From Lytechinus pictus (Eukaryota): a stretch of 64,000 nucleotides of DNA. The stretch's first letter is position 1. Each line of letters begins with the position of its first letter. The translations under genes and the position numbers were made by a program. The notes under the pieces were generated by a model. The model was not told the DNA's origin and searched no databases. It saw only the letters and a list, made by a program, of their open reading frames with translations. Positions 29,487-55,869 of this stretch are shown in pieces. The stretch is from the NCBI RefSeq assembly GCF_037042905.1, contig NC_087245.1, positions 24,802,001 to 24,866,000 of the forward strand. Reading direction: 5' to 3'.

Positions 29487-30582
29487 GATGACAAACAAAA
29501 TTAGGGCAAAGTGTTAAATCTCGCGTCTTAATATGATCTCGCTAAATGCTGACAATGTGCTTTTTTTTAATGTCAAACCGTGAGTGAAATGAAAACCACC
29601 TATTTTGATTATGGCCTTCTCGTTAAATTTGGATTAGGCGTCTTTCTTACATCATATAATTAGTGTACTTTAAAATAAATTCCACCTAAAGGAATAAACT
29701 TCACTATCCATCTTTGCATTTCATTGGAAATGTAAATTGATCATTTTGATTTTATACAACCTTCAAGAAATAGGTTTCATTATCTATCAAAGCAAAGGGA
29801 TAAACCATTTGACGACATCACAGTAAAGGTTTAAACATTAGCATGACTCTATATCTCTTTGAAGTAACAAAAAAGTCATTAAAATTCAACTTCATGCCTC
29901 TAACAGTTTATAAATATACATGATTCAAATAATAATCTAACCTTTATTCTTACCTTTCTGATGACATTAAATACCTAAATCTGAAGGATGCTACTGATAA
30001 ACGTGAAATCGTAGCCTCATTCGAACAAAGTGCGATCTAAGAATGATCTGTTAAAGCGCGGATGAATACATTTTCGCATCTTGGGTTAGCGGTGCATGCC
30101 AGAGAACGTTTTCTTTTTTTTTAATTGATGCACATGATCTGGCATAACAACAATAAATGCGGTGTATTCTATCCATTTATACGGCATTCGCCATCGTAAA
30201 ACTTTAATCCAAAACAGCCTTCCAATCTGTCAGTGGTCACTGGGGCGGATACAGGCCGTTTATAGGAGGGAGTGGCACAATAAATTGCTGATCATCCCTC
30301 CCCCCCTTTCGGGGGGGGGGGCATCATGCAAATAAGTAATAATTTCCTTTTTAATTATTTTAGGGGCAGTTTTCAGCACCTCCTCCGATCCACCAATGGT
30401 AATCATGGTTATCACATTGGGTAGTTCTAAAACACCGCAAGCATGAAAAGAGGGTAAATATAAGTTAATTATTGAAACGAAACTGTCATCTTAATAACAG
30501 ACATATAGGAATATTGATAGGCCAAAATCGAATGTAAACTGAGACTATTAAATAAAAACAAAGGACAAACGATTCATAATAC

Positions 30583-30635
30583 CATAGGCGGCGGAAGCGG
30601 GGGGAACGGTCCCCCCCCCTAAATTTTTAGTTGAT

Positions 30636-30670
<35 letters not shown>

Positions 30671-31989
30671 TGTCAATTTTTTTTACATGCCCACTGGGCA
30701 TTTTACCCGATATTACCCGGGTTGTAACAGGTAATAACGTAGTTATTACCACGGTAACACCAGTGGGTAGTAACGGGGAAATAGTAGACCAATCTTTCCC
30801 CGTTATTACCCGGACCCGATATTACTCCATTTACCCAATATTACCCAGTATGATGTAACCGATATTTCCAGCATTTTAATGATATCACCACCTCATATTA
30901 CTCTGTTTACCCAATATTACCCAATTAATGTCGGCTCATTAAAAAAACAATTAGTGTCATTAGGGTCATTGAAGCACATTTTTACAACTCCATACTCTAA
31001 GCCATATCATCTTATCCTATCCTAAAATCCTACATCCTAATCCTAATCCTATCCTACACCTATCCACCAAACCCTGTCATTTACTTCTATATATTGAGCG
31101 AGTTTACAACACTTGACAAATTATGGTTAACAATTATTCAACCCTAAAACATTTTTCTAAAATTAATGTCATGATTATGACTAATATGATATATAAACTA
31201 CACATTTTTCTGAAAATTTTCTGGGTGGAATAATTGCATAAACATAAACACATTAATTATTACAGCTATATTAGCTAAAATTTTGGCCATTTATTGTAGT
31301 AATGAATATTCATGAGTAACTAATATTCCCAGCATTTTCCTGATATTACCATCTGATATTACTCCATTTACCCAATATTAATGGGTTCCGCATGGGTTGG
31401 AGGTCTCGTTTCCATCTGAGTCCTATCTGGGCACCATGTGGGTTCAAGTATATGTTTTCATCTGGGTTCCATGTGGGCCCATATGGGACCCAGATATCCC
31501 AGATAAGAACCGTATGTGATCCAGATACTTTGCTGTCTGGGAATGGAAGCGCTTCAACATTACCCATTACCCCTTATCAACCTGTTTGTAACTGGGTAAA
31601 ATGTTGGTTTCATCAGGGTGATAACAGTAATTTTTTGGACTTTGACAATTTCGCTGGGATTGCTGTAAGATTACTGTTATTACTAAAGTTTGCAATGTTA
31701 TAACCAATCAAAGTCATTCAACATTACCCTTATTACCCATCGTCACCCTGTTGTAACTCGGTAAATGTCGGTTTCATCAGGGTGATAACAGTAACAGGTA
31801 TCAACAGGAATTATAATTTCGGTAATAGCATGGTAATAACGGTAATATTTGGTGTTACTCAAATTTCCGGGTGATATTACCGGTAATAACCGGTAAAATT
31901 GGTAATCGGTAACAAATTGCCCAGTGGGTGTGTCCATCACAAAATTTCAGGTGGACCCCCCTTAAATTTTTTGGCTTCCGCCGCCAATG
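30583..31989. mobile_element. hAT-like MITE with a nested insertion
   Basis: TIRs CATAGGCGGCGGAAGC / GCTTCCGCCGCCAATG; perfect 8-bp TSD CATAATAC; empty site present in the other three tandem copies. Confidence 0.9.
30690..31928. mobile_element. CMC/EnSpm-like non-autonomous element
   Basis: TIRs CCCACTGGGCA / TGCCCAGTGGG, 2-bp TSD TG, subterminal TTACC/GGTAA repeats. Confidence 0.75.
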
Positions 31990-32028
31990 CATAATACAAT
32001 AGAGAACGGGGAGATGGGTGCACATGGG

Positions 32029-32427
32029 GGTTTATTTTCAATTGGTTTAATGCCATTTCGTCCAATTACCCGCTCGTCTACTTTCATTTGGTCTTCCATC
32101 ATTTCATCCACTATCGACACGATCTAATTGCCATTTCGTCTAATAACTTGTTGGTCCAATAGCCATTTAGTCCATATACCATTTGGCAAAATTGGACTTA
32201 GTGTTAATTGGGCAAAATGAATGAAAATAAAATGCATATCAGACTGATTATCATACGAAATGGTCATAGACGAACTGGTGATTAGACAAAGTGCTGATTG
32301 GCCCAAGTGGTTATTAGACCAAATGGTTGTTAGACGAAATGTAGATGGATGGAATGGCATTGGACTAAATGAAGGTAGACCATGTGATGAGTGGACGAGT
32401 TGGTAAAAGACGAATTGACAATTTACC
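32029..32427. mobile_element. Mutator-like foldback MITE, present at least in part in all four tandem units
   Basis: Imperfect TIRs GGTTTATTTTCAATTGG / GAATTGACAATTTACC, 8-bp TSD CACATGGG, internal (CATTTCGTCTA)/(TAGACGAAATG) repeats. Confidence 0.7.
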
Positions 32428-33501
32428 CACATGGGGAGCGTCAGAACTGACCCCAGACAGAACGACGATGATGTTTCGTCAGAATCATTATATTATTTTA
32501 TTTCACTATTTTTATAATCAAATTTGAGAAAATCAGTATTGTCTATAACATTCCATTTTAGTTAGATGGCTCTGATAAAAATTACATCAGTTTTCAACAC
32601 ACCTTCTTCCCCCTTTTTTTTTTTGGGGGGGGGGTTGTCAATCCTTGAAAAAAAATCCTGAGGCGATATCCTGCATGCCCCCACCCATAGACGTAGTCCA
32701 TGCACTATTTTCTTTTGGGTGGATAAACTCGAATAAAGTAAAGCGGTTATTTGGCAGTCCGTCAGCCGAAGATTTGTTTGACGGCGAAATATCTAATTCA
32801 CGTGCATTTTATTTGTACTGGTCATTATTAGGGGAGTGGTTCATGAAACAAAATAGCTAGTGATTTTCACTAACAAATTGCATCTGAGCCAATGGGATGC
32901 AAGGATTTTGGTAGCTTATAACAATAGTCAGTTGCCGTTAGCATGGTTAGACCAGATATACTCAATGACGCACGAGCTTGTGGCAGGTGTCTTGCATTCT
33001 TACGCCAAGATAATAGATGTTTATTTCACTTTAGCTTGCGCGAATGAATTAGCGAATGAACTTGGATTCCTTGTTATGTAGATTTTTTAACAGCCACTTG
33101 CAATGAATGAATAGAGTATTAAGCTGCGCATGAAAAAGGCACCTGGTTATATTTCAACGGAACCAGTTTCATAAATCAATTTTGCACAGGTCTCCATTAA
33201 ATACGCCCCTCATACAGTTTTCATGCTCCCCCCTGATTTTACCAAAGATTTTTTCATCGTGCTCACTCTCTTGCGGAAAATGTTCCCCTATCAAATTAAT
33301 TACCTGAAACTTCTTCCTCTAAATATTTATTTACATTCATACATTCATTAATAGCTGGATTGATTCATCAATTTATTTGTTTCTTCATTTATTCATAATT
33401 ACTTTTGTTGATTCATTGCTTGTCAGAATCATATGCAAATATTTCAATTGATGCACATATGGCATAGCAACAATAAATACAGTGTATTCTATTCATTTAT
33501 A

Positions 33502-33764
33502 GAATAATAATAGCTGTATTTATAAAGCGCCTTTTGCCTGAGGATACAAAGCGCTGCTATTATTACCCCGGCTGTAGCTCGAGCTACCATCAACGGCGCT
33601 CAGTGCATGCAAGGAAATAATCCTGCCGGGTACCCATTCACCTCACCTGGGTCGAGTGCAGCACAGTGCGGATAAATTTCTTGCTGAAGGAAAACACGCC
33701 ATGGTTAGGATTCGAACCCACGACCCTCTGTTTGAAAGGCGAGAGTCAGAACCACTAGACCACG
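33502..33764 (-). mobile_element. tRNA-derived SINE
   Basis: Minus-strand head with box A TGGTCTAGTGG and box B GGTTCGAATCC, (ATT)n tail; absent from the paralogous site in the other tandem units. Confidence 0.9.
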
Positions 33765-35035
33765 ATTCGCCATCGTCAAACGTTAATCCAAACAGCCTTA
33801 CAATTGTGTCAGTGGTCACTGGGGCGGATTAAGGTTTATAGAAATGATGAGGGGATGGCACAAGAAATTGCTGACCACCCCCTAGCTTCCCCCGGAAAAA
33901 ATGGCTTATCATGCAAATAAGTAATAATTTCCTTCTTATTTTAAAAGGGGCAGTTTTCAGCAGCACCCCCCCCCCCCCCCATTCAGCAATTGTAATCATG
34001 GTCATCACATTGGGCAGTTCTAAAACACCGCTAGCATGTAAAGAGGTTTGTAAGGATAAATTAATTATTGAAACGAAACTGTCATTATAATAAAAGACAT
34101 GTATGAATATTGATAGGCCAATATCGAATACAAACTGAGACTATTAAAAACAAAGGACAAACGATTCATAATACAATCGAGAGCGGGGAGAAGAATGCAC
34201 ATGGGGGTTTATTTTCAATTGGTCTAATGCCATTTCGTCCAATTACCCACTCGTGTACTGTCATTTGGTCTACCATCATTTCATCCACTATCGACACGAT
34301 CTAATTGCCATTTCGTCTAATAACCTGTTGGTCCAATAACCATTAACAAATTGACTCTGAGCCAATGAGATGCAAGGATTTTGGTAGCTTATAACAATAG
34401 TCCGTTGCCGTTAGCATGGTAGACCAGATATACTCAATGACGCACTAGCTTGTGGCAGGTGTCTTGCATTCTTACGCCAAGATAATAGATGTTTATTTCA
34501 CTTTAGCTTGCGCGATTAGACAATTAACTAGGTTTCCTTGTTACGTAGATTTTTTAAAGTCACTTGCAATGAATGAACAGAGTATTAATCTGTGCATGAA
34601 AAAGGCACCATGTTATATTTCAACGGAACCAGTTTCATAAATTAATTTTGCACAGGTCTCCATTAACTGCGCCCCTTATACAGTTTTCATGCCCCCCCCC
34701 CCACCTCCCTGATTCTACCAAAGAATTTTTCATTGTGCTCACTCTCTTGCGGAAAATGTTCCCCTATCAAATTAATTAACTGAAACTTCTTCCTCTAAAT
34801 ATTTATTATATTCATACATTCATTAATAGCTGGATTGATTCGTCAATTTATTTGTTTATTCATTTATACATAATTACTTTTGTTGATTCATTGCTTGTGA
34901 GAAACATATGCAGATCTGGAATAGCAACAATAAATACAGTGTATTCTATCCATTTATACGGCATTCGCCATCGTCAAACGTTAGTCCAAACAGCCATTTG
35001 TCAATGGTCACTGGGGGATACAGGTTTATAGAAAT

Positions 35036-35238
35036 AACTTTTTTTTGAGGATTTTCTGCATTTATTGGAATAATATACAAACAAATTTACAATGCGTGAG
35101 ACATAATCATAAAATAGCATAAATTACATAACCAAGTGACAATCTTTTATGTAGTGACTGGAGAAAGACATAAATACAATATCGAAAAAAAATATGAGTA
35201 AAATGCAGAGGCAAATTATATAAGCAAATATATGCTTG
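35036..35238 (-). mobile_element. Probable retroposed 3' stub
   Basis: Insertion unique to copy C; minus strand ends with AATAAA followed by an A-run. Confidence 0.4.
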
Positions 35239-36653
35239 ATGGGGTGGCACAAAAAAATGCTGACCACCCTGTAGCTCCCCCAGAAAAAGGGGTTATCATG
35301 CAAATAAATAACAATTTCCTTCTTATTTTAGAAACAGTTTTCAGCACCCACCCCCCCCCCCCGATCTACCAATGGTAATCATGGTTATAACATTGGGTAG
35401 TTCTAAAACACCGCAAGCATGAAAAGAGGAGAAATAAGTATAAATTAATCATTGAAACAAAGCCGTCATCTTAATAACAGACATAATTGATAGGCCGAAA
35501 TCGAATACAAATTGAGGTTATAAAAAACAAAGGCAAACGATTCATAATACGATAGAGAGCGGGGAGAAGGGCGTACATGGGGATATTTACAATTGGTCTA
35601 ATGCCAATTCGTCCAATTACCAACTCGTCTACTGTCATTTGGTCTACCATCATTTCATCCATTATCCACATGATCTAATTGCCATTTCGTCCACTCATTA
35701 TTTCGTCTAATAACCTGTTGGTCCAATAATCATTTAGTCCATATTTATTAGGTCTAATTAGACTAAGTGTTAATTGGGCAAAATTAATAAAATATAAAAT
35801 GCATATCAGACTAACTGATTATCATACGAAATGGTCATAGACGAACTGGTGATTAGACAAAGTGATGATTGGACCAAATGGTTATTGGACTAAATGGTTG
35901 GTAGACGAAGGGTAGATGGATTGAATGGCATTAAACTAAGTGAAGGTAGACCATGTGATGAATGGACGGTTACAGCCCGATAGACCGCGGGTCCGATAGT
36001 CCGCGGGTCCGATAGTCCGCGGGTCCGATAGACCGCGGGTCCGATAGACCGCGGGTCCGATAGACCGCGGGTCCGATAGACCGCGGGTCCGATAGTCCGC
36101 GGGTCCGATAGTCCGCGGTGTGTGTAAAATTATGATCAGGATATAGTGAGATCCAATGTCATCAAGAGGTTTCTATAACGATGACCGAATGGACAATCGC
36201 CCCCTGACAACTACTTCAAGGAAAATATTATCCCCATATTTTTATCGTCGGGGACTGTTACCCCCCCCCCCCGGAAATTTACCCTCTAGACGCCAATTAC
36301 CCCTAGTACGGAGCCTTTCAAATGCCACTGACTTGACGACATGGCGAAATACTTTATCTTGCCATATCGACTACATAAGCTTATTATGTCGGCATGGCGA
36401 GATACCTGCCAAGTCCACATATAAAAGTTATACGTCAACATGGTGAGATATTTTATCTTGCCAAGTCGACTTGTAACAAGTTATATGTCAACATGGTGAT
36501 ATATCGGGATTCTGGCCGGGACTTGTACACTTCAGATCTCGCCATGTCGACATATCGACTTGACAAGATAGAATATATCGCCATGTCGAAATAATAAGCT
36601 TATTAATTATACATGGCAAGATAAAGTATCACGCCATGTCGTAACGTCGATGG

Positions 36654-39600
36654 TTGATTGATTGATTGATTTTATTTGTCAGGTAACTATGAACAAGTAC
36701 AAGAAAATATGAACAGAAGTGTATACCTTGACAGGATAACCCATGAAAGCCGAGATGGCTTATTTCCAATGGGGTCCTTACATCAGTAATTGAAGACAAT
36801 GTACATCTATGAAAAAACACCTATAGAAATCTACAAACTACATCAATTAAGTCTAGACCACTAAATTAACACGATGAATTGTAAAACTTAATATATAAAA
36901 AGACAGAAGCAAATAAGTTTGCCATGAAAAACACGCAGTCAACAAAATATGATTAAAATAATTGTAAAACAGGCTGAGTAAACGATCATTACTTCTAAGT
37001 TACATATGAGAATTATACTAATAATCAATTTTTAGGTAGCGGTAAATGCATCGTAACTAATACAAGATTCATGAATCGTAAAACCTAAGATATGAAAAAG
37101 TACAAATAAGTTTGACATCAAACTTTCACGCAAACAACAAAAGATGATGAAACAATGTAAAACAAGTTGATTAAAAAAAATCATATCTAAATAGTTATAT
37201 ATAAGACTACAATATTTAACATTACAGAGTGGGGACATTTTTTAAGTGTTGTTTCAATACTCTTTTAAATTGTGAAAAAGTCTTAACCGATTTAACATGA
37301 TTAGGGAGGGAATTCCAAAAATGTATACCTTTATAATAAAATGTGTTACCAATTTGACCTTTTCTCATAGGTACAACAAAGTTAAACAGACTATTTCTTG
37401 TTTCATGCCCGTGAATATTAGATGACCGTGTAAAATTTTTTGATATGTAATGATATTCGTTTGAATAGAAAATGTTATGAACATGGTGAAGTATAAGTTG
37501 TTGCGACCTCAAGTCTATGCGAAGAAGGCCAGCTTTTTCGATTTCATTCTTCCCAACATGTGTTCTTGGGTGTAAGCAAGTAATAAATCTAACAATCTTA
37601 TTTTGCATAATTATAAACTTTTTTTGATCAACCTTTCCAAGACTGCAGTACCATGCTGCATTAGCATAATCAAATAAACACTGTATTAATGAAAAGCTTA
37701 AAATGCGTCTGGATTTCGTATTCATGCAATTTTGGTACCGGTATAGAAATTTCAAGCGAGCATTAGCTTTTTTGACAATAGAGTCAACCATGGATGTACA
37801 TGAGAGATCACTATTTAATATCAGGCCTAAATACTTCACGGAATTCTGTCTCTTAATTAATTGATTGTTATAGTATATATTGAAATCATCTGTATGCTTA
37901 GACTTACCCCGCGAACAAAACAAAATACTTTCAGTCTTACCAACATGTAAGCTAAGCTTGTTATCTATCATCCATTTAACACAATTTGATAATTCTAAGC
38001 TAAGTTTTTCACCGATCAGCTTAGGACTTGTATCAGAATAGAGTAAAACACTGTCGTCTGCATATAAAAGTAATTTACTTTCATTAACACAAATACACAT
38101 ATCATTGATATAGCACATAAAAAGAATGGGACCTAATATGCTCCCCTGTGGAACTCCACACTTTATAGGCATAGAATAAGAAAGTACATTTTGCATGGAT
38201 ACCACTTGACGGCGATTGGTCAAGTAAGACCTAAACCAATTCAAGCATGCTGAATTCAAACCCATCACTTCTAATTTCTTTAAGAGTATTTCATGATTAA
38301 CCGTATCGAATGCTTTTTGTAAGTCAAGAAGAACCATGCCAACATAACGGCCTTCGGAAATTTCATTCCTAACAAAATCCAACAAGTGAATTAAACATGT
38401 TTCAGTAGAATAACCATTCCTAAAACCAGACTGAAATTCATAAATGATTTTGTATTCTTTAAAGTATTTCTCAATTTGAGAATACACGCATTTCTCCAAA
38501 ATTTTCGACACTATGCTTAACACACTAATAGGTCTATAATTGCCAACGTGAGTTTTGTCTTTCTTTTTGTGTAGTGGTGTGACTTTAGCGATTTTCATTT
38601 CATCAGGGAAGGTACAAGTTGAAATAGATAGGTTAATAATGTAAGTTAAAGGTATAAAGACGTTTTTTGCACCATCCTTTAAAAATCTAGCAGGAACCAA
38701 GTCAAGTCCGGTACTTTTTGATATTTTCAACTTGGATAATTCATCTAATACAAACTTTTCTGTGACAGGAGAAAAATTAAAACAGCCTCTTTGTATACCT
38801 TTATTGTCGTATAGTTTTTTTAAATTAGGACTGTCGGCCCCAAACTCACTTCTGTCCGTAATGGGGAGCTCACAGGCTAATTTATCGGCCACTGTTGTAA
38901 AATAATTGTTGAATTCGTTGGCTATCTTTAGATTATCATGACATAATTCCCCTTCAATATTAATAACACTTTTCTGAATATTTTTTTGTTTGTTTTTTAA
39001 ACCTAACTCTTTGAGATTCTTCCATAATTTCCTAGAATCATGTTTATTGTCTTCAATTTGATTTTGGAAAAATTCGTCTTTAGCTTTCCTCACTTTTCTT
39101 TGTACCACATTTCGCAATAGTTTAAATTTCCTTTCGAGTTCTAAATTACCAATATCCTTTTTCATTTTCCTGAAAGCTATATTTCGTTGTCTTATCAAAC
39201 CAATAATTTCACTGTTCATCCATCTTTCTGTTCTTTGCTTAATTCTTACTTGTTTTAGAGGCGCACACTTATCAACTACTGACATGAAAATACTTTTGAA
39301 GTGTGACCAAGCAATATTTACTTCATTACATTCAAATATAACAGACCAATTGATTTGAGATAAAACGAAATTAAAATCATTTTCACAATAGTTTTTCATA
39401 CATCGAATGCTTATAGTTCTATGTTGCCCGAATACAGGCCTGATAAGTTTCCTTGAACAATACGTTAAAAAGTGATCACTTAAGCCAATTTCAAAAACAC
39501 CACTTTGACAGATATTTTCTTCTTTACTACAAATTACATGGTCTATTAATGAAGAAGTGGTAGGTGAAGTTCGGGTGGGTTTTGTTATAAGTTGGCTAAA

Positions 39601-40272
39601 ACCATATAAATTCAAAATATTCTTGTATCTTTTGGTCAGTGCTGATTGTTGTAATAGACAAATATTCATGTCCCCTAAAAGTATAACCTCATCATCTTTT
39701 GTTAATATGTCCAATATATCAGGGAGAGAATCAATAAAGTGATTGTCTCTCGGGGGTCTGTAGACTACACCTAAAGTAATAGGCTTTGTATGTGGTAATA
39801 GAATGTCGATCCACAATGATTCAATACCATCAGGTGTAAGATCTTCTCTTAGATTAAATGCAATATCATTTTTAATATAAAGGCAGACCCCACCACCATG
39901 GTCGCCTGCACGATCTCGTCTTAATATAGAATAACCATCGATATAAATTTCTTCATCATTTATGGACGAATTCAACCATGTTTCAGTAATTGCAATTACT
40001 GAAATTCTACTTTCATTGAGAAGGACGCGTAGTTCAGGAACTTTATATAAAATGGATCTGATATTTAAATGAACGAAATGCAACCCTTTTGCTTTAAATA
40101 TATCATTAAATGATTTGTATAAAACAGCCTTATCAATTCCAGTAGGTGGGTTAAATTCAGGGATAGGAGGTGCATTAACTTTTGAGGTGGGTTGAACATC
40201 AATCAAGGATTGTGTAAAAATGGAGTCACAAAATGGCGGCAATGAACAGGTTAAACATATCCAATTCTCATT
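36654..40272 (-). mobile_element. 5'-truncated CR1-group (Crack/L2-like) LINE
   Basis: Intact APE-RT frame, ~570-bp 3' UTR with terminal stem-loop GGACCCCATTGGAAATAAGCC..GGCTTTCATGGGTTATCC and (CAAT)n tail; only TGG is shared at the two junctions. Confidence 0.9.
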
Positions 40273-40278
40273 TGGCAT
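37222..40278 (-). CDS. LINE ORF2: APE endonuclease plus reverse transcriptase (1018 aa)
   Basis: APE motifs HLNIRS, AITETWL, VYRPP, LGDMNI, SLIDH, SDHF; RT motifs NYRPIS, QSGFR, LDLQKAFDTV, GVPQGSILGP, LYADD, KYLG; N-terminal WxCxxC remnant. Confidence 0.95.
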   Translation of the reverse strand: MPNENWICLTCSLPPFCDSIFTQSLIDVQPTSKVNAPPIPEFNPPTGIDKAVLYKSFNDIFKAKGLHFVHLNIRSILYKVPELRVLLNESRISVIAITETWLNSSINDEEIYIDGYSILRRDRAGDHGGGVCLYIKNDIAFNLREDLTPDGIESLWIDILLPHTKPITLGVVYRPPRDNHFIDSLPDILDILTKDDEVILLGDMNICLLQQSALTKRYKNILNLYGFSQLITKPTRTSPTTSSLIDHVICSKEENICQSGVFEIGLSDHFLTYCSRKLIRPVFGQHRTISIRCMKNYCENDFNFVLSQINWSVIFECNEVNIAWSHFKSIFMSVVDKCAPLKQVRIKQRTERWMNSEIIGLIRQRNIAFRKMKKDIGNLELERKFKLLRNVVQRKVRKAKDEFFQNQIEDNKHDSRKLWKNLKELGLKNKQKNIQKSVINIEGELCHDNLKIANEFNNYFTTVADKLACELPITDRSEFGADSPNLKKLYDNKGIQRGCFNFSPVTEKFVLDELSKLKISKSTGLDLVPARFLKDGAKNVFIPLTYIINLSISTCTFPDEMKIAKVTPLHKKKDKTHVGNYRPISVLSIVSKILEKCVYSQIEKYFKEYKIIYEFQSGFRNGYSTETCLIHLLDFVRNEISEGRYVGMVLLDLQKAFDTVNHEILLKKLEVMGLNSACLNWFRSYLTNRRQVVSMQNVLSYSMPIKCGVPQGSILGPILFMCYINDMCICVNESKLLLYADDSVLLYSDTSPKLIGEKLSLELSNCVKWMIDNKLSLHVGKTESILFCSRGKSKHTDDFNIYYNNQLIKRQNSVKYLGLILNSDLSCTSMVDSIVKKANARLKFLYRYQNCMNTKSRRILSFSLIQCLFDYANAAWYCSLGKVDQKKFIIMQNKIVRFITCLHPRTHVGKNEIEKAGLLRIDLRSQQLILHHVHNIFYSNEYHYISKNFTRSSNIHGHETRNSLFNFVVPMRKGQIGNTFYYKGIHFWNSLPNHVKSVKTFSQFKRVLKQHLKNVPTL

Positions 40279-41663
40279 TTTAAAGGCTCCGTACTAAGGG
40301 TAATTATCCGGGGTAATTGTCTCGAGGGTAAATTTCTGGGGGTAACAGTCCCCGGCGGTAAAAATATGGGGATCATATTTTCCTTGAAGTAGTTGTCAGT
40401 GGATGATTGCCCTAATTTGGTTATTGTTATAGAACCCAGGCGCGGATCCAGGATTTGGTGAGAAGGGGGGCCCAAATTTGACCTGATTCTTGGCGCCCAT
40501 GTGTACTTTTCGAAAAATTGCGCCCACTCCCTTCCAGCCAGGCTAACTTAAGTGCCTTAAATGGATTTTGAATTATCTTATAATCACATTTTAAAAAGGC
40601 AATTAAAGACCATTCTTTTAATGTGTTCTTTAAAAAAAAATCGATGAATATAATAATGAAATATCAATGGGAGCGCGAAGCGCGAGCGATTGGGGGGGGG
40701 GGGGTTCAATTTGGTTTAATTTCTCACGAGAGTAGGCCCTACTAGAATATTGTGTGAACGGGAGCTGTAGTTTCTTTGCTTGTTGTTTTAGAATAGCCTT
40801 CAATAATATTAATGATAGCTTCTTGGGAATAATGCAATCACGAAGCAATCGACTCATTCTCCTCATTTGTGGCGTATTTATTCAGCATGGGTGCACGAGG
40901 GGGGGGGGGTCTTGTTGAACTTTTGTAGAGGGCACCAAGATAACAACAATCAATGAAATGGGAGGGGGGTAGAGGTTAAAGAATATCTGAGATTTTATTT
41001 TAAAAAACACATTGAGGTATTTCACAAGGCCTAAATATATAATGAGAACGCGAAGCGCGATCTGATTTTTTTTTTTTGATGTATTTTATCCTGAAAGCCT
41101 AATTCCGGGGGCGGACCCAGCTTCCGCAAATGAGGGGGCGAATTTTTTCACCCATATTTTCCCCGATCGGCCGCTCAATGTTGATTTTTTTTTTTTTTTT
41201 TTGAAAGGGTTGTTCCAGTGGCGTAATGAGCCAACAATTTTGAGGGGGCTCGATATGGCGTATCGCATAAAATTAATAAGAAGTTTCCAGTGAGCGAAGC
41301 GAGCAAGCAAATATGCTGACATTTTTATTACAAAAATACAAGGTTGTGATAGATTTTGACATAATATTTGGAAAATAATATCATATTTCATCCTAATCCC
41401 TTTCCTTTTCTCTCTTTTTTTTTTTTTTTTTTTTGGGGGGGGGGGGCAAAACGCCCGTGTCCTAACAGTCATTTCCTAGCTTTACTTTATAAACAACATA
41501 AATGTGTAACAATCTCATAAGCCCTATGCAAGCTAAAAAAAATGAAATTTCATGTATTTTGTCCAGAAAATTGAAAATTCTGGGCAATGTTTGTAAACCT
41601 GAACAGAACGCGTTATGTAACTAGATAATTACCATGAGCGCGAAGCGCGATCAGAAGTGTTAA

Positions 41664-42273
41664 AGGACAAGCCCACCCCAACAAAAAGTTGCTTTGAATA
41701 GAAAGTGAAAAATTAAACAAACATAACACTGAAAATTTCATCAAAATCGGATGTAAAAAAAGAAAGTTAACATAACACATAACATTTTAAAGTTTTGCTT
41801 AATTTTTCAAAACATTTATATGCACATCCTGGTCGGTATGCAAATAAGGGGACCGATGACATCACCCACTCACTATTTCTTTTGTATTTTATTATATGAA
41901 ATATGAAATATTTTGATTTTCTCGTCATTGTCATGTGAAACAAAGTTTCATTCTTCCCTGAACACATGTAATTCAATTATTTTAACATTTTGTGGTTCAA
42001 GCAAGGGGGTCCTAATTGTCGAATTCATAAAAATTGAAATATTGTATTATTCAAACAATAGAAAACAAAATAAATAGTGAGTGAGTAACATCATCGACTC
42101 TCTCATTTGCATATCACTGAGTTGAGCATAGAACTGTTTTTTTGAAAAAATAAGCGAAACTTTAAAATGTCATAACTTATTTTACATCCGATTTTGATGA
42201 AGTTTTCAGCGTTATTCATGTTTGATTTTTCTCTATTTATTCAAATCAACATTTTCTGGGGTGGACTTGACCT
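41664..42273. mobile_element. Kolobok-like palindromic MITE
   Basis: TTAA on both sides; TIRs AGGACAAGCCCACCCCA / TGGGGTGGACTTGACCT; long mirrored arms. Single-arm relatives at ~51290-51408 and ~54180-54330. Confidence 0.8.
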
Positions 42274-44439
42274 TTAAATATGCATTCTGGCCTAGTCGAA
42301 AAGGGACCTGTTAAGGACGTTTTGCAGTTAGCCATTAAGACGATATATATTTCAACGATTAAATAATGTGAGCGCGAAGCGCAAGCTGAACATTTTTGAT
42401 ATTCCAACCTAAAAAGATGAGATTTCAAACCCCCCAACAGGACGCTCGAGTCATGTTTTGTCAATCATGAAAAAGGATGGGTAATTTTTAGTGTCTTCAT
42501 AATGCGAGCGCAAAGCGCGAGCAGAAAATTTTTGATATTCTGATCTGAAACTGGATAATTTTAGTACGTTTTGAATAAGATCAAGCTGCGTATCTAAAAA
42601 AAAACATGCGTGCGCGTGTTTTAGAGTTAGACCAGTTAGACAGAATCTGCATTCTGAATACATTTCATTTTTCATCATGAAAATCAATAATGCGATCGCA
42701 GAGCGCGAGTTGAAAATAATATTTGAAATTCCGATATGAAATGAGTCAATTTAAGCACTATTTACAGCACTTTGTATATAGGAAAATTGTGACGTCGATG
42801 TGGATAGCACTAAATAAATGATGCGAGCGCGAATCGTGTGCTGATATTTTATTATTATTTTAACCTAGGATCGAGACATTTTAAGCCTAAGGATATTTTG
42901 TCATCATTATAAGAATGATGACTATCTTCTATTTCTTTTCTTAAAACGTGTCGATATTTATTTATGAAAAAGGGACAATTTAGTTATTATGAATTCATAA
43001 AAATTTTATTTCATATTTATTAATTTAATAAGCCTAATGAGTGTGTGAAATTTGTTGACAGTGTATGTGGCCTGAAAACTGGAAATTTTAAGTATTTTTA
43101 TAATCATGAATAGGATTCATTGGTTGATATATTTTTAGCAAATAACGTGAGCGCAAATCGCGATCCGAAATGTTTAAATGGGGGGGGGATTTAAGTAGTT
43201 TGTTATAGAATTAATATACAGTATAGGTGTACATAACTCACCAAAATGCGAGAGCACAGCGTGAGCATAGGCCTTCATTTTTTTTTAGAATCGAGACACC
43301 TGAAAAGGAATATTTAGATAATCTTATATGAAATACAAAAAGGCAAAAGGTAGGCCTACATAGCAAATAATGCGAGCGCACAAAATGTTGCAAATGTTGA
43401 TTCACACCATAAAACGGACATTTTCCAGAGCACTTTAAAAAAAAAAAATGGCCAAAAAAAAAAAAAATGAAAGATCGATGTCCGAGCTGAATTATGTTTT
43501 GTATATTGACTTCAAAACTTTATCTTTTGAACTATATATCAGCCTATATTGACCGAGATATGTATCTCATCGAACAGGCAATGCGAGCGTGATGCGCGAG
43601 CGAAATTTTAATATAGTGACATTAAATATTTTAAAAATTATTTTTTAAGTCTTCTCCTGACCTTATTTTATTCACTCGTCTTCCTCCTTTTATCTTTCCC
43701 CTTCTTTTTGTCTTTCTTTCCCCGTTTTTCCCAATTTATTTGCTCCGTCAATAGGGGGAGGGGCCCTCGGGCCCCCTGGATTCGCCTATGTTAGTAGTTG
43801 ATGAACACGATGCATATCTATTAAGAAATGAATGCGAGCGCGAAGCGCTAGCTGAAAACTTTTATAATGATAAAATGAAAAATACATTTTCAGTTGTCAG
43901 GTTAGAATATCAAATATTTTCAGCTTGTGCTTCTCGTTCTCTAAAAAAAAACTGTGAGGTCGGGATGCGTATATAACTAAACAATTTATTGATGCCAGCG
44001 CGAAGCGCGAGCTCAATTTTTTTATATACTGACTTAAGAAGGATTAAGGTATAATTCCTATTCTAATTGCTTGTCCCTTTTCTCTTCGTTTTCTGTTTCT
44101 TACCCCTTTTTTGCGCCACCATGGGGGGGGGGGCAAAATCTTTGCCCCGTGGATCGGCCTATGTATGTTGACTTGAAGAACACTAACACTTACATGTAGG
44201 ATTGATGCAGAGGATGCATACCTCATTGATGAAATATTGCGAGCGCGTAGCGCGAGCTGAATTTGATAATAACCCCTTTTTGTGACCCTGAACAGGATAT
44301 CTATCTCGCTAAACAGACTTAAAACTCGAAAACATTGTTTTTGTCTATTATCGTAAAAACGGGATATTTTAATTCACCCGCATGAATTTAAGCTTTTTGG
44401 GCAGGACATATATTTCACTATAAACAGGCAATACGAGCA

Positions 44440-44790
44440 ATGTTGCGCCCCCGGTCGAAAATGAATTTGCATGAAGCCCCCTAAGTTCAAGGTCAATTTG
44501 GCGCCCTCGGTTGAACATAAACTTGGCGCCCCCATGTGAAATATAACTTTGCCCTCCCCCCCCCCCCCCTCTGAAACATGTATTTGTCGCATTATGGTCA
44601 AAATTCAAATTAGCGCTCCTCTATAGTTCGAACATCAATTTGGTGCCCCGCTAGATCGAACATCAATTCGGCGCTCCCATAGTTCGAACATCAATTTCGC
44701 GCCCCCCTCCCAGTTCAAACATCAGTTCGGCGCCCCATAGTTCTAATGTTATTTTGGCGCCGCCTAGTTCGAACATCAAATCGACGTCCG
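44440..44790. repeat. ~27-30-bp tandem repeat
   Basis: Repeated TAGTTCGAACATCAATT(T/C)GGCGCCCC. Confidence 0.75.
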
Positions 44791-44799
44791 GGTCAACAT

Positions 44800-45700
44800 C
44801 TCCCTCTTTCGTTTCCCATCTCCTTTTCTTTCTTTCTTTTTTTTCTTTCTCTTATCCTCATTCCCCTTCCTTTCTCTTTCTTTCTCTCTTTCTTTCCCCC
44901 TCTTCCTCTCCCCTTTTCTTCTTTTCCTTCCTCCTCTCTCTCTCTCTCTCATTTTCTTCTCTTAATTTTCCCCTTTTCTTCTCTTTTTTCTTGTCTTCCT
45001 TTCTCCCTTTTCTTCTCTTTTCCCCTATCTTTTCTTTCCCACTTTTCTTCTATTTTTTCCCGTCTTTTCTTTCTCTCTTTTCCTCTCTCTTTTCTCTTTT
45101 TTCTTCTTTTCCTTCCCCCCTCACTCTCTCCTTTTTTCTTCTCTTTTCCTCTATTCCCCTCTCTCTCTCTCTTTTCTTATCTTTCTTCCCATCTTCCTCT
45201 CTTTTTAAATATTATTCTCTTCCTTCCCCTTTTCTTTCTCCTTTCTTTTCCCTCTTCCGCTTTTTTCTTTTTCCCCCTTTTTTCTTTTTCTTTCCTTTCC
45301 CCCTTTTTCTCTTTTAATTTTTTTTCTTCTCTCCCTCTCCTTCCCCCTCTCTCTTTTTCTTCTCTTCTTTTCCCCTCTTCCTCTCTCTCTCTCTTTTTTT
45401 CTTATCTTTCTTCCCATCTTCCTCTCTATTTAAATATTCTTCTCTTCCTTCCTCTTTTTTTCTTCTTCTTTTTCCTCCTTTTCCATTCTCCTTTCTTTTC
45501 TTCTCTTCCTTTTCCCTCCTCTCTTGTTTTCTCTTCTCTTTCCCCCTTTTCTTCTCCCTTTTTCCCGTCTTTTCTGTCTCTCTTTTCCTCTCTCTTTTCT
45601 CTTTTTCTTCTCTTCCTTCCTCCCCCTTACTCTCTTTTCTATTCTCTTCTTTTCCCATCTTCCTCTCTCTCTTTTCCCCTCTTCCCCCTCTTTTTTTTTT
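44800..45700. repeat. Long polypyrimidine low-complexity tract with internal duplications
   Basis: ~900 bp of almost pure C/T; TTAAATATT-containing block repeated at ~45205 and ~45430. Confidence 0.9.
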
Positions 45701-46134
45701 GAGCTGGGGGTGGGGGGGTGAGGCAGTTCCCCCTCGGCCCCCCCATGGATCCGCACCTGATAGAACCCCATGGTCTCGTATCATTTGACCTTTGGACCTC
45801 TCGATGACATTTGATACATCTGATCATAATTTTACACACACTGCGGACTATCGGACCCGCGGTCTATCGGACCCGCGGTCTATCGGACCCGCGGACTATC
45901 GGACCCGCGGTCTATCGGACCCGCGGTCTATCGGGATGTCCCCGAATGGACGAGTTGGTAAAAGACAAATTGGCAATTTACCCACATGGGGAGCGTCAGA
46001 ACTGACCCCAAACAGAACGATGATGGTGTTTCGTCAGTGTCATTTTATTTCACTATTTTATTAATCAAATTTGAAAAAAATCAGTATTGTCTTTAATATT
46101 CCATTTTAGTTAGATGGCTCTGATGAAGATTACA

Positions 46135-46589
46135 AACATTATACAAATAATGAATGTTTTAATGCAATGGACAGAATACTTCATGAGGTGAAAGATGAAA
46201 TGATCCATTCAACGAGGCGTAGCCGAGTTGAATGGATCATTATTTCATCTTTCACCGAATGAAGTATTCTGTCCATTGCACAAATGAAAAAACATTCATT
46301 ATTTGGTTTATATGACACCTAAAAATTTTTTTCATATGAAATTCATGAATTTCGATGCAAAACATGCTCATGCAGTACGAGTTCGGTCTGTTGATTGTTA
46401 CGTCATTGCAACATGCGCACTGCTGGTGCATGAGCTGCAGTCTCGTTGCGCGAGTGCAATGGACAAAATCGTATGGATCCAATGAATGGATCCAAAATTG
46501 CACGTTTGATGACGTCCTTGCAAAATGGGCTGAATGAACGATATCAAACAACCAATCAAATCCCAAGGATCTATCTAGGTGTCATATAA
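46135..46589. mobile_element. Hairpin-bearing non-autonomous insertion, family uncertain
   Basis: Absent from the paralogous site in units A and D; ~170-bp hairpin with loop CGAGGCGTAGCCGAG; inverted pair TTATATGACACCTA / TAGGTGTCATATAA. Confidence 0.75.
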
Positions 46590-49500
46590 CAGTTTTCAAC
46601 ACACCTTCTTTTCCCAGTTACCAAGGTGATATCCTGCATGCCCCCACCCATAGACGTAGTCCATGCACTATTTTCTTTTCGGTGGATAAACTTGAATAAA
46701 GTAAAGCGGTCATTCGGCAGTCCGTCAGCCGAAGATTTGTTTGACGGCGAAATATCTAATTCACCTGCATTTTATTTGTACTGGTCATTATCAGGGGAGT
46801 GGTTCATGAAACAAAATAGCCAGTGATTTTCACTAACAAATTGACTCTGGGCCAATCGGATGCAACGATTTTGGTAGCTTATAACAATAGTCAGTTGCCG
46901 TTAGCATGGTAATCCAGATATACTCAATGACGCACGAGCTTGTGGCAGGTGTCTTGCATTTTTACGCCAAGATAATAGATGCTTATTTCACTTTAGCTTG
47001 AAATGCGCGAATGAATTAGCGAATGAACTTGGATTCCTCGTTGTGAAGATTTTTTAACAGCCACTTGCAATGAATGATCTGTTCATGAAAAAGGCACCAG
47101 GTTATATTTCAACGGAACCAGTTTCATAAATTCATTTTGCACAGGTCTCCATTAACTACGCCCCTCATACAGTTTTCATTCTCTCCCCCCCCCCCTGATT
47201 TTACCAAAGATTTTTTCATCGTGCTCACTCTCATGCGGAAAATGTTCCCCTATCAAATCAATTACCTGAAACTTCTTCCTCTAAATATTTATTTACATTC
47301 ATACATTCATTAATAGCTGGATTGATTCATCAATTTATTTGTTTCTTCATTTATTCATAATTACTTTTGTTGATTCATTGCTTGTCAGAATCATATGCAA
47401 ATATTTTTAATTGATGCACATCTGGCATAGCAACAATAAATACAGTGTATGCTATCCATTTATACAGCATTCGCCATCGTCAAACGTTAATCCAAACAGC
47501 CTTCCAATTGTGTCAGTGGTCAGTGGGGCGGATCAAGGTTTATAGAAATGATGAGGGGGTGGCACAAGAAATTGCTGACCACCCCCTAGCTCCCCCAGAA
47601 AAAATGTGTTATCATGTAAATAAGTAATAATTTCCTTCTTATTTCATGGACAGTTTTTAGCACCCCCCCCCCCCGATCCACCAATAGTAACCATGCATTG
47701 GGTAGTTCTTAAACACCGCAAGCATGAAAAGAGGGTAAATAAGTATAAGTTAATTATTGAAACGAAACTGTCATCTTAATAACAGACATAATTGATAGGC
47801 CAAAATCGAATACAAACTGAGGTTATTAAAAACAAAGGATAAACGATTCATAATACGATAGAGAGCGGGGAGAAGGGTGCACATGAGGGGGGTATTTTCA
47901 ATTGGTCTAATGCCAATTCGTCCAATTACCCACTCGTCTACTGTCATTTGGTCTACCATCAGTTCGTCCACTATAGACATGATCTAATTGCAATTTCGTC
48001 CACTCATCATTTCGTCTAATAACCTGTTGGTCCAATAACCATTTAGTCCATATACCATTTTGGTCTAATTGGACTAAGTGTTAATTGGGCAAAATGAATA
48101 AAAATAAAATGCATATTAGACCAACTGATTAATATGCAAAATATTCATAGACGAAGTGGTGATTAGACGAAATGATGATTGGACAAAATGGTCGTTAGAC
48201 GAAATGTTGATGGATGGAATGGCATTACACTAAATGAAGGTAGAACATGGGATGAGTGGACGAGTTGGTAATAGACGAATTGGCAATTTACCCACATGGG
48301 GAGCGTTAATAGAACTGACCCCAGACAGAACGACGCTGGTGTTTCGTCAGTGTCATTATATTGTTTTATTTCACTATTTTCATAATCAAATTTGAGAAAA
48401 TCAGTATTGTCTATAACATTCCATTTTAGTAAGATGGCTCTGATGAAAATTACATCAGTTTTCAACACACCTTCTTCCCCCTTTTTTCAATCCTTGAAAC
48501 CAAAAATTACCCACAGGTGATATCCTGCATGCCCCCACCCATAGACGTAGTCCATGCACTATTTTCTTTTCGGTGGATAAACTTGAATAAAGTAAAACAG
48601 TTATTTGGCAGTCCGTCGGCCGAAGATTTGTTTGACGGCGAAGTATCTAATTCACGTGCATTTTATTTGTACTGGTCATTATCAGGGGAGTGGTTCATGA
48701 AACAAAATAGCCAGTGATTTTCACTAACAAATTGACTCTGAGCCAATGGGATGCAACGATTTTGGTAGCTTATAACAATAGTCAGTTGCCGCTAGCATGG
48801 TTAGACCAAATGACCAGTAGCACATGTGGCAGGTGTCTAGCATTCTTACGCCAAGATAATAGATGTTTATTTCACTTGAGCTTGCACGAATGAAATAGCA
48901 ATTCAACTTGGATGGCTTATCCAAAACATGGAAAGCATAATGTGTACGTGGGAGACTGTCCTGATCTGACCAAGCAGCTAATCACACGCCCCTGACCCCA
49001 ATAATGTTTCTATGTTATGCGAGGGCAACTATAATATATAGAGTATCTATTTTTTTTCCTTTGTGGTCGAAACTTATTTTTGTGGGGGGGGGGGGGGGGC
49101 TTGAGTGATTTTTTTTTTTTTTTTGGGGGGGGGGCTTCAGCCCTATGCTTCAGCCCCCAAAGTTTTCCTCTTGAACCGCGCCTGGCGAGCGCGAATCGCG
49201 AGCGAAACATTCATTAAAAGGCTTGCTATTTGCAAATTATCCTCCTCCTCTAATTTTCGCCACTCCGATCATTCTTCCTCCTTTTCTTTTTTTTCTTCCT
49301 CTTCTTTTCTTCATATTCTCCTCCCTTTCCCCCCCCCCTTTTTTTTTAAGATTCCTCCTTTTTCTGCTTCGCCAATTGACGGGGGCGGCGCAGCAGCTGC
49401 TTCACCCTCCTTTATTTTACAATATGTTTCCCGCCCTGATCTATTGATTTTTGGACGAGAGAAGGCAATGGATTTGAGGCTATTAGATTCACAATTTTGT

Positions 49501-50818: not shown

Positions 50819-52123
50819 GCCCCACTGATCTCTCCACTAACTGGATATGCGGGGAGGGTCCTTTGTTTTGAAGCCCGCGAGTTCTATTGTCCGCCATACC
50901 AGTTCCCCCAAAAGGAACGCGATCGCTCCACTAGCATTTGCATTATGAGCGATATAGCTGTCTGCACACTGAAGCTCTCATTACTTTTCATATAAAAGGT
51001 GCCAGAATTCGCAATTTTCTTGAAACCATGGTACTTTCCCAGTACATTTCGGAAACATAATTTTGAAGGGGTTGGTGTTTTTCTCACCTAAGGAAGAATG
51101 GATGAAATCCTTGACTTGTCTAGGGGTATTTTGGAGGTTTGCCACATAACATCTTAGGGATAGGGCGAGGACTTTCTAGGTTATGCAGGCTTATACACTG
51201 GGCTTGAAACCCCCTTTTATTTAAGCCCACCCCCCAAAAAATAAATCAAACAAGCATATATAACACCGAAAAATTCATCGCTTAAGTAAAACTGTAAAAT
51301 ATCATAACTTTCATATTTTACTTCTGATTTTGATTAAATTTTCAGCATTATTGTGGGTTTTTTTACTCTATTCAAATAATCTTTTCCATGAGGTGGACTC
51401 GCCCTTTAAGAGTGTCTCTCTCTCTCTCTCCCTCCGTCACATTGATCGACCCTATTCAATTATCCTCTCCCCAGTTTATTCATAGTATAGGCAGCGGAAG
51501 CGGGGGGGGGGGGGGTCCTGTCCCCCCTAAATTTTAGGTGGGGGTCAGACCCCAAAAAATTTATGTTGATAACCTTTTTTGTTCTTTTTGCTTGTCAATT
51601 TTGTTTCCTGCATCCCCTCTAAATTAAGGTGGACCCCCAAAAATTGTTGTGGTCCGCCCTAAAATTCTGGTTGGTAACCTTTTTTTTGCTTGTCAGATTA
51701 TTTCTTTTGTTTTGCATCCCTCCCTAAATTTTGGGTTGATAACCTTTTTTTTTGCTTGTCAGATTATTTTTCTTGCATCACCCCCCTAAATTTTTGGTAG
51801 ATAACCCCCCCCCCCTTTTTTTTTTGCTCCACCGAGACATTTTTTTCTTTGAAGACATTCATCTCAAAATAAGTTCTGTGAAATTTCTGAAATCTGTAAA
51901 TCCGTCTCTGTAGCCTAATGTCTTTTATGTACTTTTTTTAAAAAAATGAGTTCTTGGAAAAAATAATTAGATCTATTGTTGACAGAGAAATATCACAAAT
52001 TCACATGCCACAAGTTACATTACCCTCCTAAAGTCCTAGCCTACCGTACATGTAGCTTGTAAATTTTATTGTCCTTTCCAAGGAAATTAACACAAATAAA
52101 AGATAAAATAATTTCCAGAATAC

Positions 52124-53864: not shown

Positions 53865-55869
53865 GTAAGTTTTATTCATGGTATGTCTAAATTATTTGCA
53901 TGTGTGGAAATGTGTAGTTGCAATTTGTCTAAATAAAAAAATGTTCGGTAACGAAAAGGCAATAATATGAGCGACCGCCAACCGAGCAGAGAATTGGATT
54001 TCGTCACGGTCGGGGACATGGGAATGCATTTTCAGTAGGATCTTTAAACAATTTATTTTTAGATAAATCTATACGCTCCTATTTTGCCTCAACGGTTATC
54101 ATATTCAAGCGTCGAGCAAATATCCCATAATGATGGTTCTACCGCGTCGGCCCCATGTAAATGACATGATGATTCGTTTAAGGTCAAGTCCGCCTCAACC
54201 AAATGTGACTACACAGAAAAATGATACAAACGTAATGTTGAAAATGTCATCAAGATCAGATGTAAACATCGTGATATTTAAATGTTTTGCTTATTTTCAC
54301 AAAATAGTTAAATGCCCAACACAGATAATATGCAAATGAATATGTGATGATAGCATACCATATGAATTGTATGTTTTGTTGTTTGATTGTAAATATTTAC
54401 CTTAACCTTGAAAGGGCTGCATGGGCTATTTGAGATGTAATGAGGACTGGGGCATGATGCCCCCCCCCCCCCCTTCTGATATCGGCCGCCGTTTGCGTGA
54501 TTGCGTCGAAATTTGGCATGCACATTCTTTACAACATAAACTACAAGCCAGTATTTAAAAAGTCCGAAAATACATATCATTTCATATATCATGAATAAAA
54601 TATGCAAATTTATCGTGAAAAATATAATTTGCATACTTAACATCCAGTTTCATTTCAATTTTTTTTTGTCATCGTTGTTAAAATATTTAAAGATTTCCAC
54701 AAAGAAAAATTGCGAAAGCCAAATTTGTCCGTATGTATTTCATTGTTTTTTCATCTTTTGTTTGTCATTGTTTTTTATGGAAATTTTTACAGAACGTTTA
54801 ACAACTAAATCAAACCCTAAATCAATTAAGCAGACCAATTAGAATGAAAAATAATCACCCTTTTATGAATTTCATCTCCCGTAGACTTTGTACACAAAGT
54901 ATAAAAATTAGCCATTTTCGGTAAGACATTCCGCCCTTTCACACGGTAAAAAATCGTAATTTGAATGACGATTCCAGTGAAAAATAAAGATAATGACGAA
55001 CATTTAGCACGTGTGAAACCAAACTAGTACATGAGTAGAATCACAAACGCTAATCACAGTCACAATTACAAAAGTAATCATATCAATTACAATAATGATT
55101 CAAGATTCACGTGTGAAAAGGCACATTGTCTTCTAAAAAGTCACGTGGCGTCGCGACATAACTGTACATTACGAATTTGGTCTCAAAAGTTGCGCGAGAC
55201 TTAAAAAAAAAGCCATAAAATTTTGCGGCTCTGTCTTTTCGCGTTTCGGAAATATCGCGCGAAGCGTTGAGGGGCCCATTATGGCCCCTAATCCTTTTTA
55301 GGGTTTGAGACATCTTAATTATATTTTTATGATTTTCTATACCATCAAATTTATGCAAATGATTTAGTATATGGCGATGACGCTATCAACTATACCATGA
55401 CATTGATGAATATAGTAAGTACATGTGATATGTTTTATGAGGACCATTAACATCATGTATTAGTTTGTTTCTTATGGGAATTTTAATATTATTTATCTGT
55501 TTATTTATTTATTTTATTCATTTGTTTATTTATTATTCATTTATTCATTTACTTTTTTTTTTCTTTTTTTTTGTTTGATTTTTTGTGGGGGTCCCGGGCA
55601 AACTATATTTAGGTTTATAACATAATGAACAATTTTTTGACAATCTTACCATTACTTCACTTTATTTTTTCTTACATTGAATGTGAAACTATTTTTCGTA
55701 TTATATATGTTCAAATTTTTATTTTCACAGTGAGTTTTTTTATTATATCAAGCCTAATTTACAAACTTTCATTATTAATGAATACAACTCGGAAGAAACG
55801 AGCTTTAATGTTTTTTTTCTTCAAGGGCAGACCCTGTGTTAAATAATAAAACTACAATTTTGTTTGCAG

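Follow-up and report, generated by a model that had tools for sequence, protein, structure and literature searches.

The question raised by this locus is whether a reverse-transcriptase (RT) frame which sits between the ends of a DNA transposon belongs to something that moves as DNA, or instead is a passenger there. The locus lies within a window, i.e., the whole stretch of DNA analysed, of 64,000 nucleotides from Lytechinus pictus (assembly GCF_037042905.1, contig NC_087245.1, positions 24,802,001 to 24,866,000 of the forward strand). At 35968-45943 of that window is a 10-kb element in which inverted-repeat layers surround a long interspersed nuclear element (LINE). A first-pass annotation had described these layers as packaging an intact RT open reading frame (ORF) inside one unit flanked by a target-site duplication (TSD), a frame that could move by cut-and-paste, while granting that sequential insertion in place would be the simpler explanation. 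The locus is, quite probably, a stack of nested insertions, with the LINE having come late, as a passenger that was retrotransposed where it now lies. There are five insertions, as seen with their junctions, with the truncation of the LINE, and with the occurrence elsewhere of layer 1 by itself, of a LINE-less core, and of a longer LINE. Here the layers are numbered from the outside inward: layer 0 is the host foldback, layer 1 supplies the ends of the outer element, and layers 2 and 3 form the concentric core.

The outermost of these insertions is proven by empty paralogs. The outer element is flanked by an 8-bp direct repeat, GAATGGAC, whose copies are identical at 8/8 positions, and among duplication lengths of 2 to 10 a full match is seen at 8 only. 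The surrounding unit is present three times in the window, with copies ~10% apart, and the two paralogous host sites (32389-32396 and 48254-48261) are empty, each with a single GAGTGGAC. That the repeat arose by chance was considered and rejected, given a probability of ~1e-5 for a given 8-mer along with those empty paralogs. Both TSD copies, moreover, carry a G-to-A change which the paralogs lack, and the outer insertion thus is later than the local duplication. Taking out the LINE and the insert at 40437-45759 leaves a 1023-bp foldback which aligns with its own reverse complement; in this the first-pass description of one ~1-kb foldback with an exact TSD was right. The tandem duplication around the element (30118-35970 and 45944-48913) consists of ~1-1.1 kb units of 80-93% identity, with units at about 30-32k, 32-33.5k, 34.2-35.9k and 46.6-48.9k serving as natural empty-site controls.

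Layer 1 would appear to be a Merlin-like non-autonomous element, the assignment being by its ends because the unit has no transposase; that is, no long frame for a DDE_Tnp_IS1595 transposase is seen within the unit. Its tips, GGTTACAG.. and GGGGACAT.., both start with GG, and its TSD is the 8-bp repeat just described. Merlin elements have terminal inverted repeats (TIRs) which begin with GG along with 8-9 bp TSDs, and among them imperfect TIRs and tandem repeats occur (PMC8101967). The right tip differs from the left by 3 mismatches within the first 9 nt. These mismatches were not accepted as proof that the outer element is dead, since Merlin families can be active in spite of very imperfect TIRs (PMC8101967).

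The outer element has as its host a fourth, older foldback, layer 0, which is absent from the first-pass annotation, which is flanked by an 8-bp repeat (TACATGGG / CACATGGG) and which has empty paralogs at about 32022-32435 and 47888-48300. The outer element went in ~30 bp from the right end of layer 0, i.e., away from its centre. The G-rich tips of layer 0, its 16-bp internal repeats, and its 8-bp flanking repeat CACATGGG are like those of a Merlin-like element, as seen here and in the copies at about 32030-32427 and 47890-48292. It seems, that is, that one Merlin-like element landed inside another, layer 1 in layer 0.

APE-type non-LTR (non-long-terminal-repeat) retrotransposons are marked by a 3' simple-repeat tail, by 5' truncation, and by a short TSD or none. 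The LINE of this locus has an (AATC)n tail, is 5'-truncated, and has TGG on both sides, with positions 40273-40275 shared with the target, i.e., as either a 3-nt duplication or microhomology. A simple-repeat tail together with a short junction match fits target-primed insertion with 5' truncation. The insertion is off-centre in layer 3, at 18 bp from its right end.

The RT ORF, which had been called intact, is open but incomplete. Pfam PF03372 (APE) and PF00078 (RT) are found in one frame and the catalytic motifs TETWL, GDMN, SDH and YADD are present, yet the LINE is 5'-truncated inside its PHD finger: the ORF gives no PHD hit, with only the last C-x-x-C of the finger kept, and no C-terminal zinc knuckle is seen within it. 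Among the 120 hits listed, 15 of which were aligned, the best is P0001, with 57% identity over 99% of the query. Candidate clades for the LINE are CR1, Crack and L2, of which no named reference sequence is among those 120 hits. Residue 2 of the ORF aligns to residue 129 of P0001, the PHD of which spans 87-138, and this closest near-full-length relative has 128 extra N-terminal residues. Close full-length relatives carry a GD(V/I)xxNPGP motif upstream, and most also a PHD. A whole LINE of the 2A-PHD-APE-RT kind would have a 2A motif, a complete PHD and a native 5' end, none of which this copy has.

The first-pass annotation had proposed a search of the genome for the junctions. That check was replaced by one using the contigs of public sequencing runs, 24 of which were listed, with 20/24 containing part of the stretch; none of the runs containing it is recorded as RNA, and they have no bearing on expression. 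Four runs, all contigs, were compared over 36105-40620 at 85% likeness, i.e., X1, X3, X11 and X14, two of them from organism A and two from organism B. Contigs are taken as evidence of presence, never of absence, and contig depth is not taken as copy number.

Layers 2 and 3 recur joined in other copies, namely in X1 record 1 (~90% alike, no LINE), in X3 record 30, and in a joint of X14, and the core which they form thus is a genuine multi-copy composite. To this extent the packaging idea holds up, but the LINE and layer 1 are seen to come apart from the core. A LINE-less joint, 36650->40273 with a single TGG, is present in three of the four runs (1 contig in X1, 2 in X11, 1 in X14) and is absent from X3 among the joints listed. 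Two additional LINE-less forms are seen in X14, and LINE-less forms are present in both organisms. X3 record 29 matches the LINE over 38823-40275, differing at 7 positions, and beyond the match has another 361 letters that are unlike the arm; the LINE family therefore has a longer 5' end, one different from that found here. Five X1 contigs diverge behind 36170, continuing with letters like those of the inner right arm of layer 1, so that layer 1 exists without layer 2. The left inner arm of layer 1 in this locus is shortened, with about 22-29 bp missing, and the missing part is present in those 5 X1 contigs. No piece spanning a LINE/arm junction is seen among the 32 listed of 4264. The first-pass annotation had named, as what would refute its idea, junctions unique to this locus and layers that occur elsewhere only independently, and on the whole this check went against an RT that is mobile as DNA. 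For the LINE, then, sequential insertion, as seen with the LINE-less joints, the longer LINE 5' end and the truncation, is better supported than is the mobile RT.

Ages point in the same direction. Versus X1 contigs the LINE shows 13 differences in 3058 letters (about 0.4%), and versus X14 record 21 it shows 37 in 1733. For the foldback interior, comparison with other copies gives 12 differences in about 155 letters, 15 in 122, and 21 in 162 (about 8-13%). With divergences of ~0.4% versus ~8-13%, the LINE is much younger than the family of layers 2 and 3, and therefore came late.

The ORF has, as well, been changing in a manner that is in line with neutral drift. At 8 ORF sites all four runs differ from this copy, and these private changes are 6 replacement and 2 silent, where 0.80 replacement is expected under neutrality (p = 0.67). 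Of the 10 ORF differences among the runs, 4 are replacement whilst 6 are silent (p = 0.007 against neutral). A random change creates a stop about 5% of the time, and nine changes leave a frame open 61% of the time; the ORF presumably is still open because the LINE copy is young.

The ORF begins with an in-frame ATG (40276-40278, minus strand) which comes from the layer 3 arm, is immediately followed by the first codon of the LINE, and has A at -3. That this ATG is the LINE's own was rejected, as the match of X3 record 29 stops at 40275; for the same reason the CCA codon would be the LINE's and the ATG the arm's. At a random junction an in-frame ATG is found within 3 codons in 6.6% of cases and before the next stop in 26%, and we infer that this one is a chance gift of the arm.

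The 3' region of the LINE contains an internal duplication of ~110 bp (36874-36982 vs 37071-37175, 77% identity). Over the last 200 bp of the 3' end (36558-36859) contig depth is several times that of the body in 4/4 runs, which may reflect many short 3' copies or a SINE-like (short interspersed nuclear element) partner, depth being a poor measure.

The remaining large piece, the 5.3-kb insert, is located in the right tip of layer 2, with its TSD, ATAGAACC, duplicating the last 8 bp of that layer. With CA..TG ends and an 8-bp TSD, we take it to be hAT- or P-like, a label given by its ends. Its left end is multi-copy in the public contigs, and its longest open frames are low-complexity. Probably the insert is several nested elements. 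Inside it is a hairpin miniature inverted-repeat transposable element (MITE), presumably Kolobok-like, pieces related to which are seen at 51283-51409 and 54177-54339. Further element-like ends are found in the insert at 41106 and 41216 (plus strand) and at 43790 and 44163 (minus strand). A motif of GCGAGCGCGAAGCGCGAGC type is present there in 13 copies, and a 28-bp array (44613-44783) and a CT-rich tract of 900 bp are found as well.

The stack is read as follows. The old foldback, layer 0, lies within a locally triplicated unit. Layer 1 entered one copy near its right end, presumably via a Merlin-type transposase, giving rise to the 8-bp TSD. The older, multi-copy palindromic element consisting of layers 2 and 3 occupies the centre of layer 1, having arrived either here or in a donor copy, and the left junction has lost about 25 bp along with any TSD. 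The 5.3-kb element, with its own 8-bp TSD, went into layer 2 at its right tip. The LINE, which is of 2A-PHD-APE-RT type and is truncated, would have inserted near the right end of layer 3 by target-primed reverse transcription, with synthesis stopping inside the PHD finger and the product joining at a 3-nt match, as would be expected from established LINE biology. The LINE would thus be a late, in-place and dead-on-arrival copy. As the unit is without a transposase, any movement of it would be only in trans, probably by a transposase of Merlin type. Coordinates of these features are collected in Table 1.

Table 1. Features of the nested locus, by position in the window.
Feature	Positions	Strand	Basis
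Layer 0, left part: host of the outer element, an older foldback having degenerate 16-bp repeats	35582..35967		empty paralogs
Outer TSD, left copy, GAATGGAC	35960..35967	+	repeat comparison, empty paralogs
Layer 1, left arm: 9 x 16-bp array behind a GG tip, shortened inner arm	35968..36170	+	sequence and X1 contigs
Layer 2, left arm; tip may include 36168-36170	36171..36306	+	arm alignment
Layer 3: TACGG end and palindromic interior, ends at LINE	36307..36653	+	arm alignment, folding
LINE: non-LTR retrotransposon truncated at its 5' end, with (AATC)n tail at 36654, 3' region of 568 nt, APE-RT frame	36654..40275	-	junctions, domains, contigs
Open frame of 1018 aa: ATG, last PHD C-x-x-C, APE, RT	37222..40278	-	domains, relatives, contig match end
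Layer 3, right end, ..CCGTA	40276..40293	+	arm alignment
Layer 2, right arm; last 8 bp are the insert's target	40294..40436	+	arm alignment
5.3-kb insert, CAGG..CCTG ends, 8-bp TSD, itself nested	40437..45759		ends, TSD, multi-copy left end in contigs
Hairpin MITE inside insert, TTAA both sides, AGG..CCT ends	41664..42273		self-comparison
Insert TSD ATAGAACC, second copy	45760..45767	+	repeat comparison
Layer 1, right arm: starts at palindromic centre CCATGG, with 6 x 16-bp array and CC tip	45768..45943	+	sequence
Outer TSD, right copy	45944..45951	+	repeat comparison
Layer 0, right end, 31 bp	45952..45982		paralog comparison

Why layers 1 to 3 should be concentric is a question within this account. 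The layers had been said to be stacked at or near each other's symmetry centres, and this stands for layer 2 in layer 1 and for layer 3 in layer 2, but not for the outer element, the LINE or the insert; that is, 2/5 insertions are central. The layer 2 arms align with 117 matches and 15 mismatches, those of layer 3 match at 82/98 positions, and the folding of layer 3 is strong (z = -12.4). The left tip of layer 2, which had been given as GGTTCTATAAC, actually reads GGTTTCTATAAC. The layer 2 motif GGGGACTGTTACC and its mirror (36250-36262 and 40341-40353) resemble both layer 1 tips, and these possibly are putative shared transposase-binding sites.

We would give roughly even chances to separate elements having inserted at the hairpin or cruciform tips of the underlying foldback, with the product, layers 2 and 3, then amplified as a family. 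Layer 2 is located at a distance of 1-3 bp from layer 1's CCATGG dyad, layer 3 is located at the dyad of layer 2, layer 1 is found alone, and RAG transposase is described as targeting cruciform tips in vitro (PMC1618415). The junction between layers 2 and 3 varies, too: in 11 contigs from X11 and another 11 from X14, TACGG follows at 36295 rather than at 36306, and a different right spacer is also seen in X14. The TSDs to be expected from such insertions are, however, hard to find: layer 2 has no convincing one, i.e., a 3-bp GGT only and in asymmetric register, and layer 3, when read with TAC..GTA ends, has no 6-bp TSD, its flanks (CCCTAG vs CTAAGG) agreeing at 2/6. Registers for layer 3 which duplicate TA or GTAC do fit, if trivially. 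Three further insertions at the locus, as noted, are off-centre, and no copy of layer 3 outside of layer 2 is seen among the rows listed.

At somewhat under even chances, layers 2 and 3 would instead be a single element with TIRs of ~230 bp, which arose on one occasion when one end was duplicated in inverted form or converted, and no targeting of centres need then be supposed. Flanks at the boundary between the two layers are mirror images rather than direct repeats, the arms are continuous across that boundary, and both layers are together in all junction rows listed (those of X1, X3 and X14 cited above). One mirrored long TIR thereby accounts for layers 2 and 3 nearly as well as does insertion at hairpin tips. 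It fits less well with a junction position that varies among copies, nor does it fit well with the ends of layer 3. These, TACGG..CCGTA, are TA..TA termini such as are seen with IS3EU and GingerRoot elements, and because such ends belong to a known superfamily they suggest that layer 3 once was a separate element (PMC10045372). Layer 3 nevertheless was not filed as IS3EU, for which the TSD usually is 6 bp (PMC10045372); layer 3 lacks a 6-bp TSD and, unlike those elements, is without a transposase.

Several points weigh against the in-place, late arrival of the LINE. The contig results rest upon 32/4264 pieces, 15/88 joints and 24/896 loose ends. No allele of this locus lacking only the LINE was seen in the contigs, and the longest LINE-less contig, as it is only about 90% identical, is a paralog. 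The ORF substitution counts come from 40/215 difference rows, with one mixed ORF row (38739) excluded, and the contrast between private and lineage changes falls short of significance by itself (Fisher p = 0.13; 0.19 if the X3 rows are included). The inverted 16-mer arrays of layer 1, 9 units on the left vs 6 on the right, show 1 departure in 221 non-polymorphic positions. Nearly free of point changes, the outer layer thus looks similar in age to the young LINE, and younger than the layers it encloses, which fits a recent move of a pre-built unit. Either these arrays have been homogenised or layer 1 arrived with layers 2 and 3 already inside. The latter would partly vindicate the first-pass annotation as regards the 1-kb core, and would keep a single move including the LINE possible.

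Such a single move, of the whole 10-kb unit with its LINE, assembled elsewhere and carried here once by cut-and-paste with a Merlin-type transposase acting in trans, we consider unlikely. The RT frame in that case would have travelled passively, but would really have moved. In favour are the presence of both outer ends and of an exact TSD; the arrays look very young, active Merlin families with imperfect TIRs exist (PMC8101967), and junctions unique to this locus are compatible with cut-and-paste as it can leave one copy only. Nonetheless the move would require that a 10-kb cargo be transported after a LINE insertion only ~0.4% old, LINE-less forms are found in both organisms, and no second copy of the LINE-bearing unit exists within the window. 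An APE-RT frame with DNA-transposon ends was correctly described in the literal sense that the frame lies between the ends of a TSD-flanked element.

Still bolder, and in our estimate quite improbable, is that hairpin-tip targeting repeatedly builds concentric foldbacks within this genome, one of which rescued a 5'-truncated LINE via the arm's in-frame ATG, giving a translatable APE-RT between Merlin-type ends that can be, or already has been, moved and copied as DNA. Were that true, the rescued LINE would be a route from retrotransposon to DNA-mobile RT gene. More improbable yet is a propagating composite as with Xenopus Tx1, in which the LINE targets the foldback family, the arm's ATG enables translation, and DNA ends and RT spread jointly: the arm's in-frame ATG with A at -3, next to the LINE's first codon, intact APE and RT motifs, and the existence of LINEs that target non-autonomous DNA transposons (Tx1 in Tx1D, and Tx1-Mar; PMC4494074) would favour it, but the only 5'-extended LINE contig among the pieces listed continues into non-arm sequence, the examples with target specificity belong to the Tx1 clade and this ORF instead has a PHD-APE-RT layout with no C-terminal zinc knuckle, the private changes look neutral, and the ATG is not improbable by chance.

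A stack of nested insertions with a late LINE therefore remains our reading, and what the locus offers is a neat case of transposon nesting which can in part be dated, with the nesting itself of an ordinary kind. It offers also a warning, which is that an open RT frame between TIRs need be neither intact nor DNA-mobile. If the LINE-bearing unit were present at several loci, then this would show an RT gene spreading by cut-and-paste. Two testable questions of modest value are whether the palindromic MITEs in this genome are built by insertion at hairpin tips, given that layers 2 and 3 recur with shifted junctions, and whether a TIR can serve as start-codon donor for a truncated LINE.

Elsewhere in the window, just to the right of the unit, is a small hairpin element (46144-46305; arms 46163-46204 and 46239-46280, 93%). 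A 5.5-kb degenerate array of 20/25/45-bp repeats, with many open frames on the minus strand, occupies 9255-14746, and a 295-bp satellite of 7.8 copies occupies 18377-20623. AT-rich arrays at 58.0-58.8k and 60.7-61.5k (58013-61520) have consensus units which look mirror-imaged, and together possibly are another large foldback.

Pattern scans gave 0 matches, both for layers 3 and 1 among metagenome contigs and for layer 2 among viral ones, though as these collections need not contain this animal's DNA, that is no evidence. In the literature covered, outside of which are most subscription papers and Repbase, there is no description of this element or of an RT frame spread by Merlin-type ends; PMC4455052, PMC5718144 and a monarch preprint give nothing by which to decide. 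Comparison with known systems thus is piece by piece. Layer 1 is like non-autonomous Merlin elements in its GG TIR start, 8-bp TSD, imperfect TIRs and internal tandem repeats (PMC8101967, PMC10045372), and differs in that its unit is without a transposase and has been assigned from ends only. The ORF belongs with APE-type LINEs of 2A-PHD layout, full-length relatives having a 2A-like motif, PHD, APE and RT in one frame; 2A-bearing LINEs laid out in this manner have been described from sea urchin and lancelet (Odon et al. 2013, PMC3708506). This copy, unlike those, has lost the 2A motif and 42/52 of the PHD residues of P0001. Xenopus Tx1 (Tx1L in Tx1D) and crocodilian Tx1-Mar are alike in layout only, i.e., a LINE inside a non-autonomous DNA transposon (PMC4494074); those are of the Tx1 clade with repeated choice of target, whereas here one insertion is seen, with no sign of repeated targeting among the contig pieces listed.

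In the way it works the locus is like Galileo, a foldback of Drosophila buzzatii whose copies gather nested hAT and LINE-like insertions. Galileo likewise is a non-autonomous DNA element, with long TIRs and a TSD of its own, and nested within it are an 8-bp-TSD element and a LINE-like piece (PMC2775673). The same text gives an 8-bp TSD for the hAT element BuT4, and its authors read the nested pieces in Galileo copies as secondary colonisers (PMC2775673). The present locus differs from Galileo in having a 3.6 kb LINE with an open APE-RT frame, in its three concentric layers, and in ends which are Merlin-like rather than P-like.

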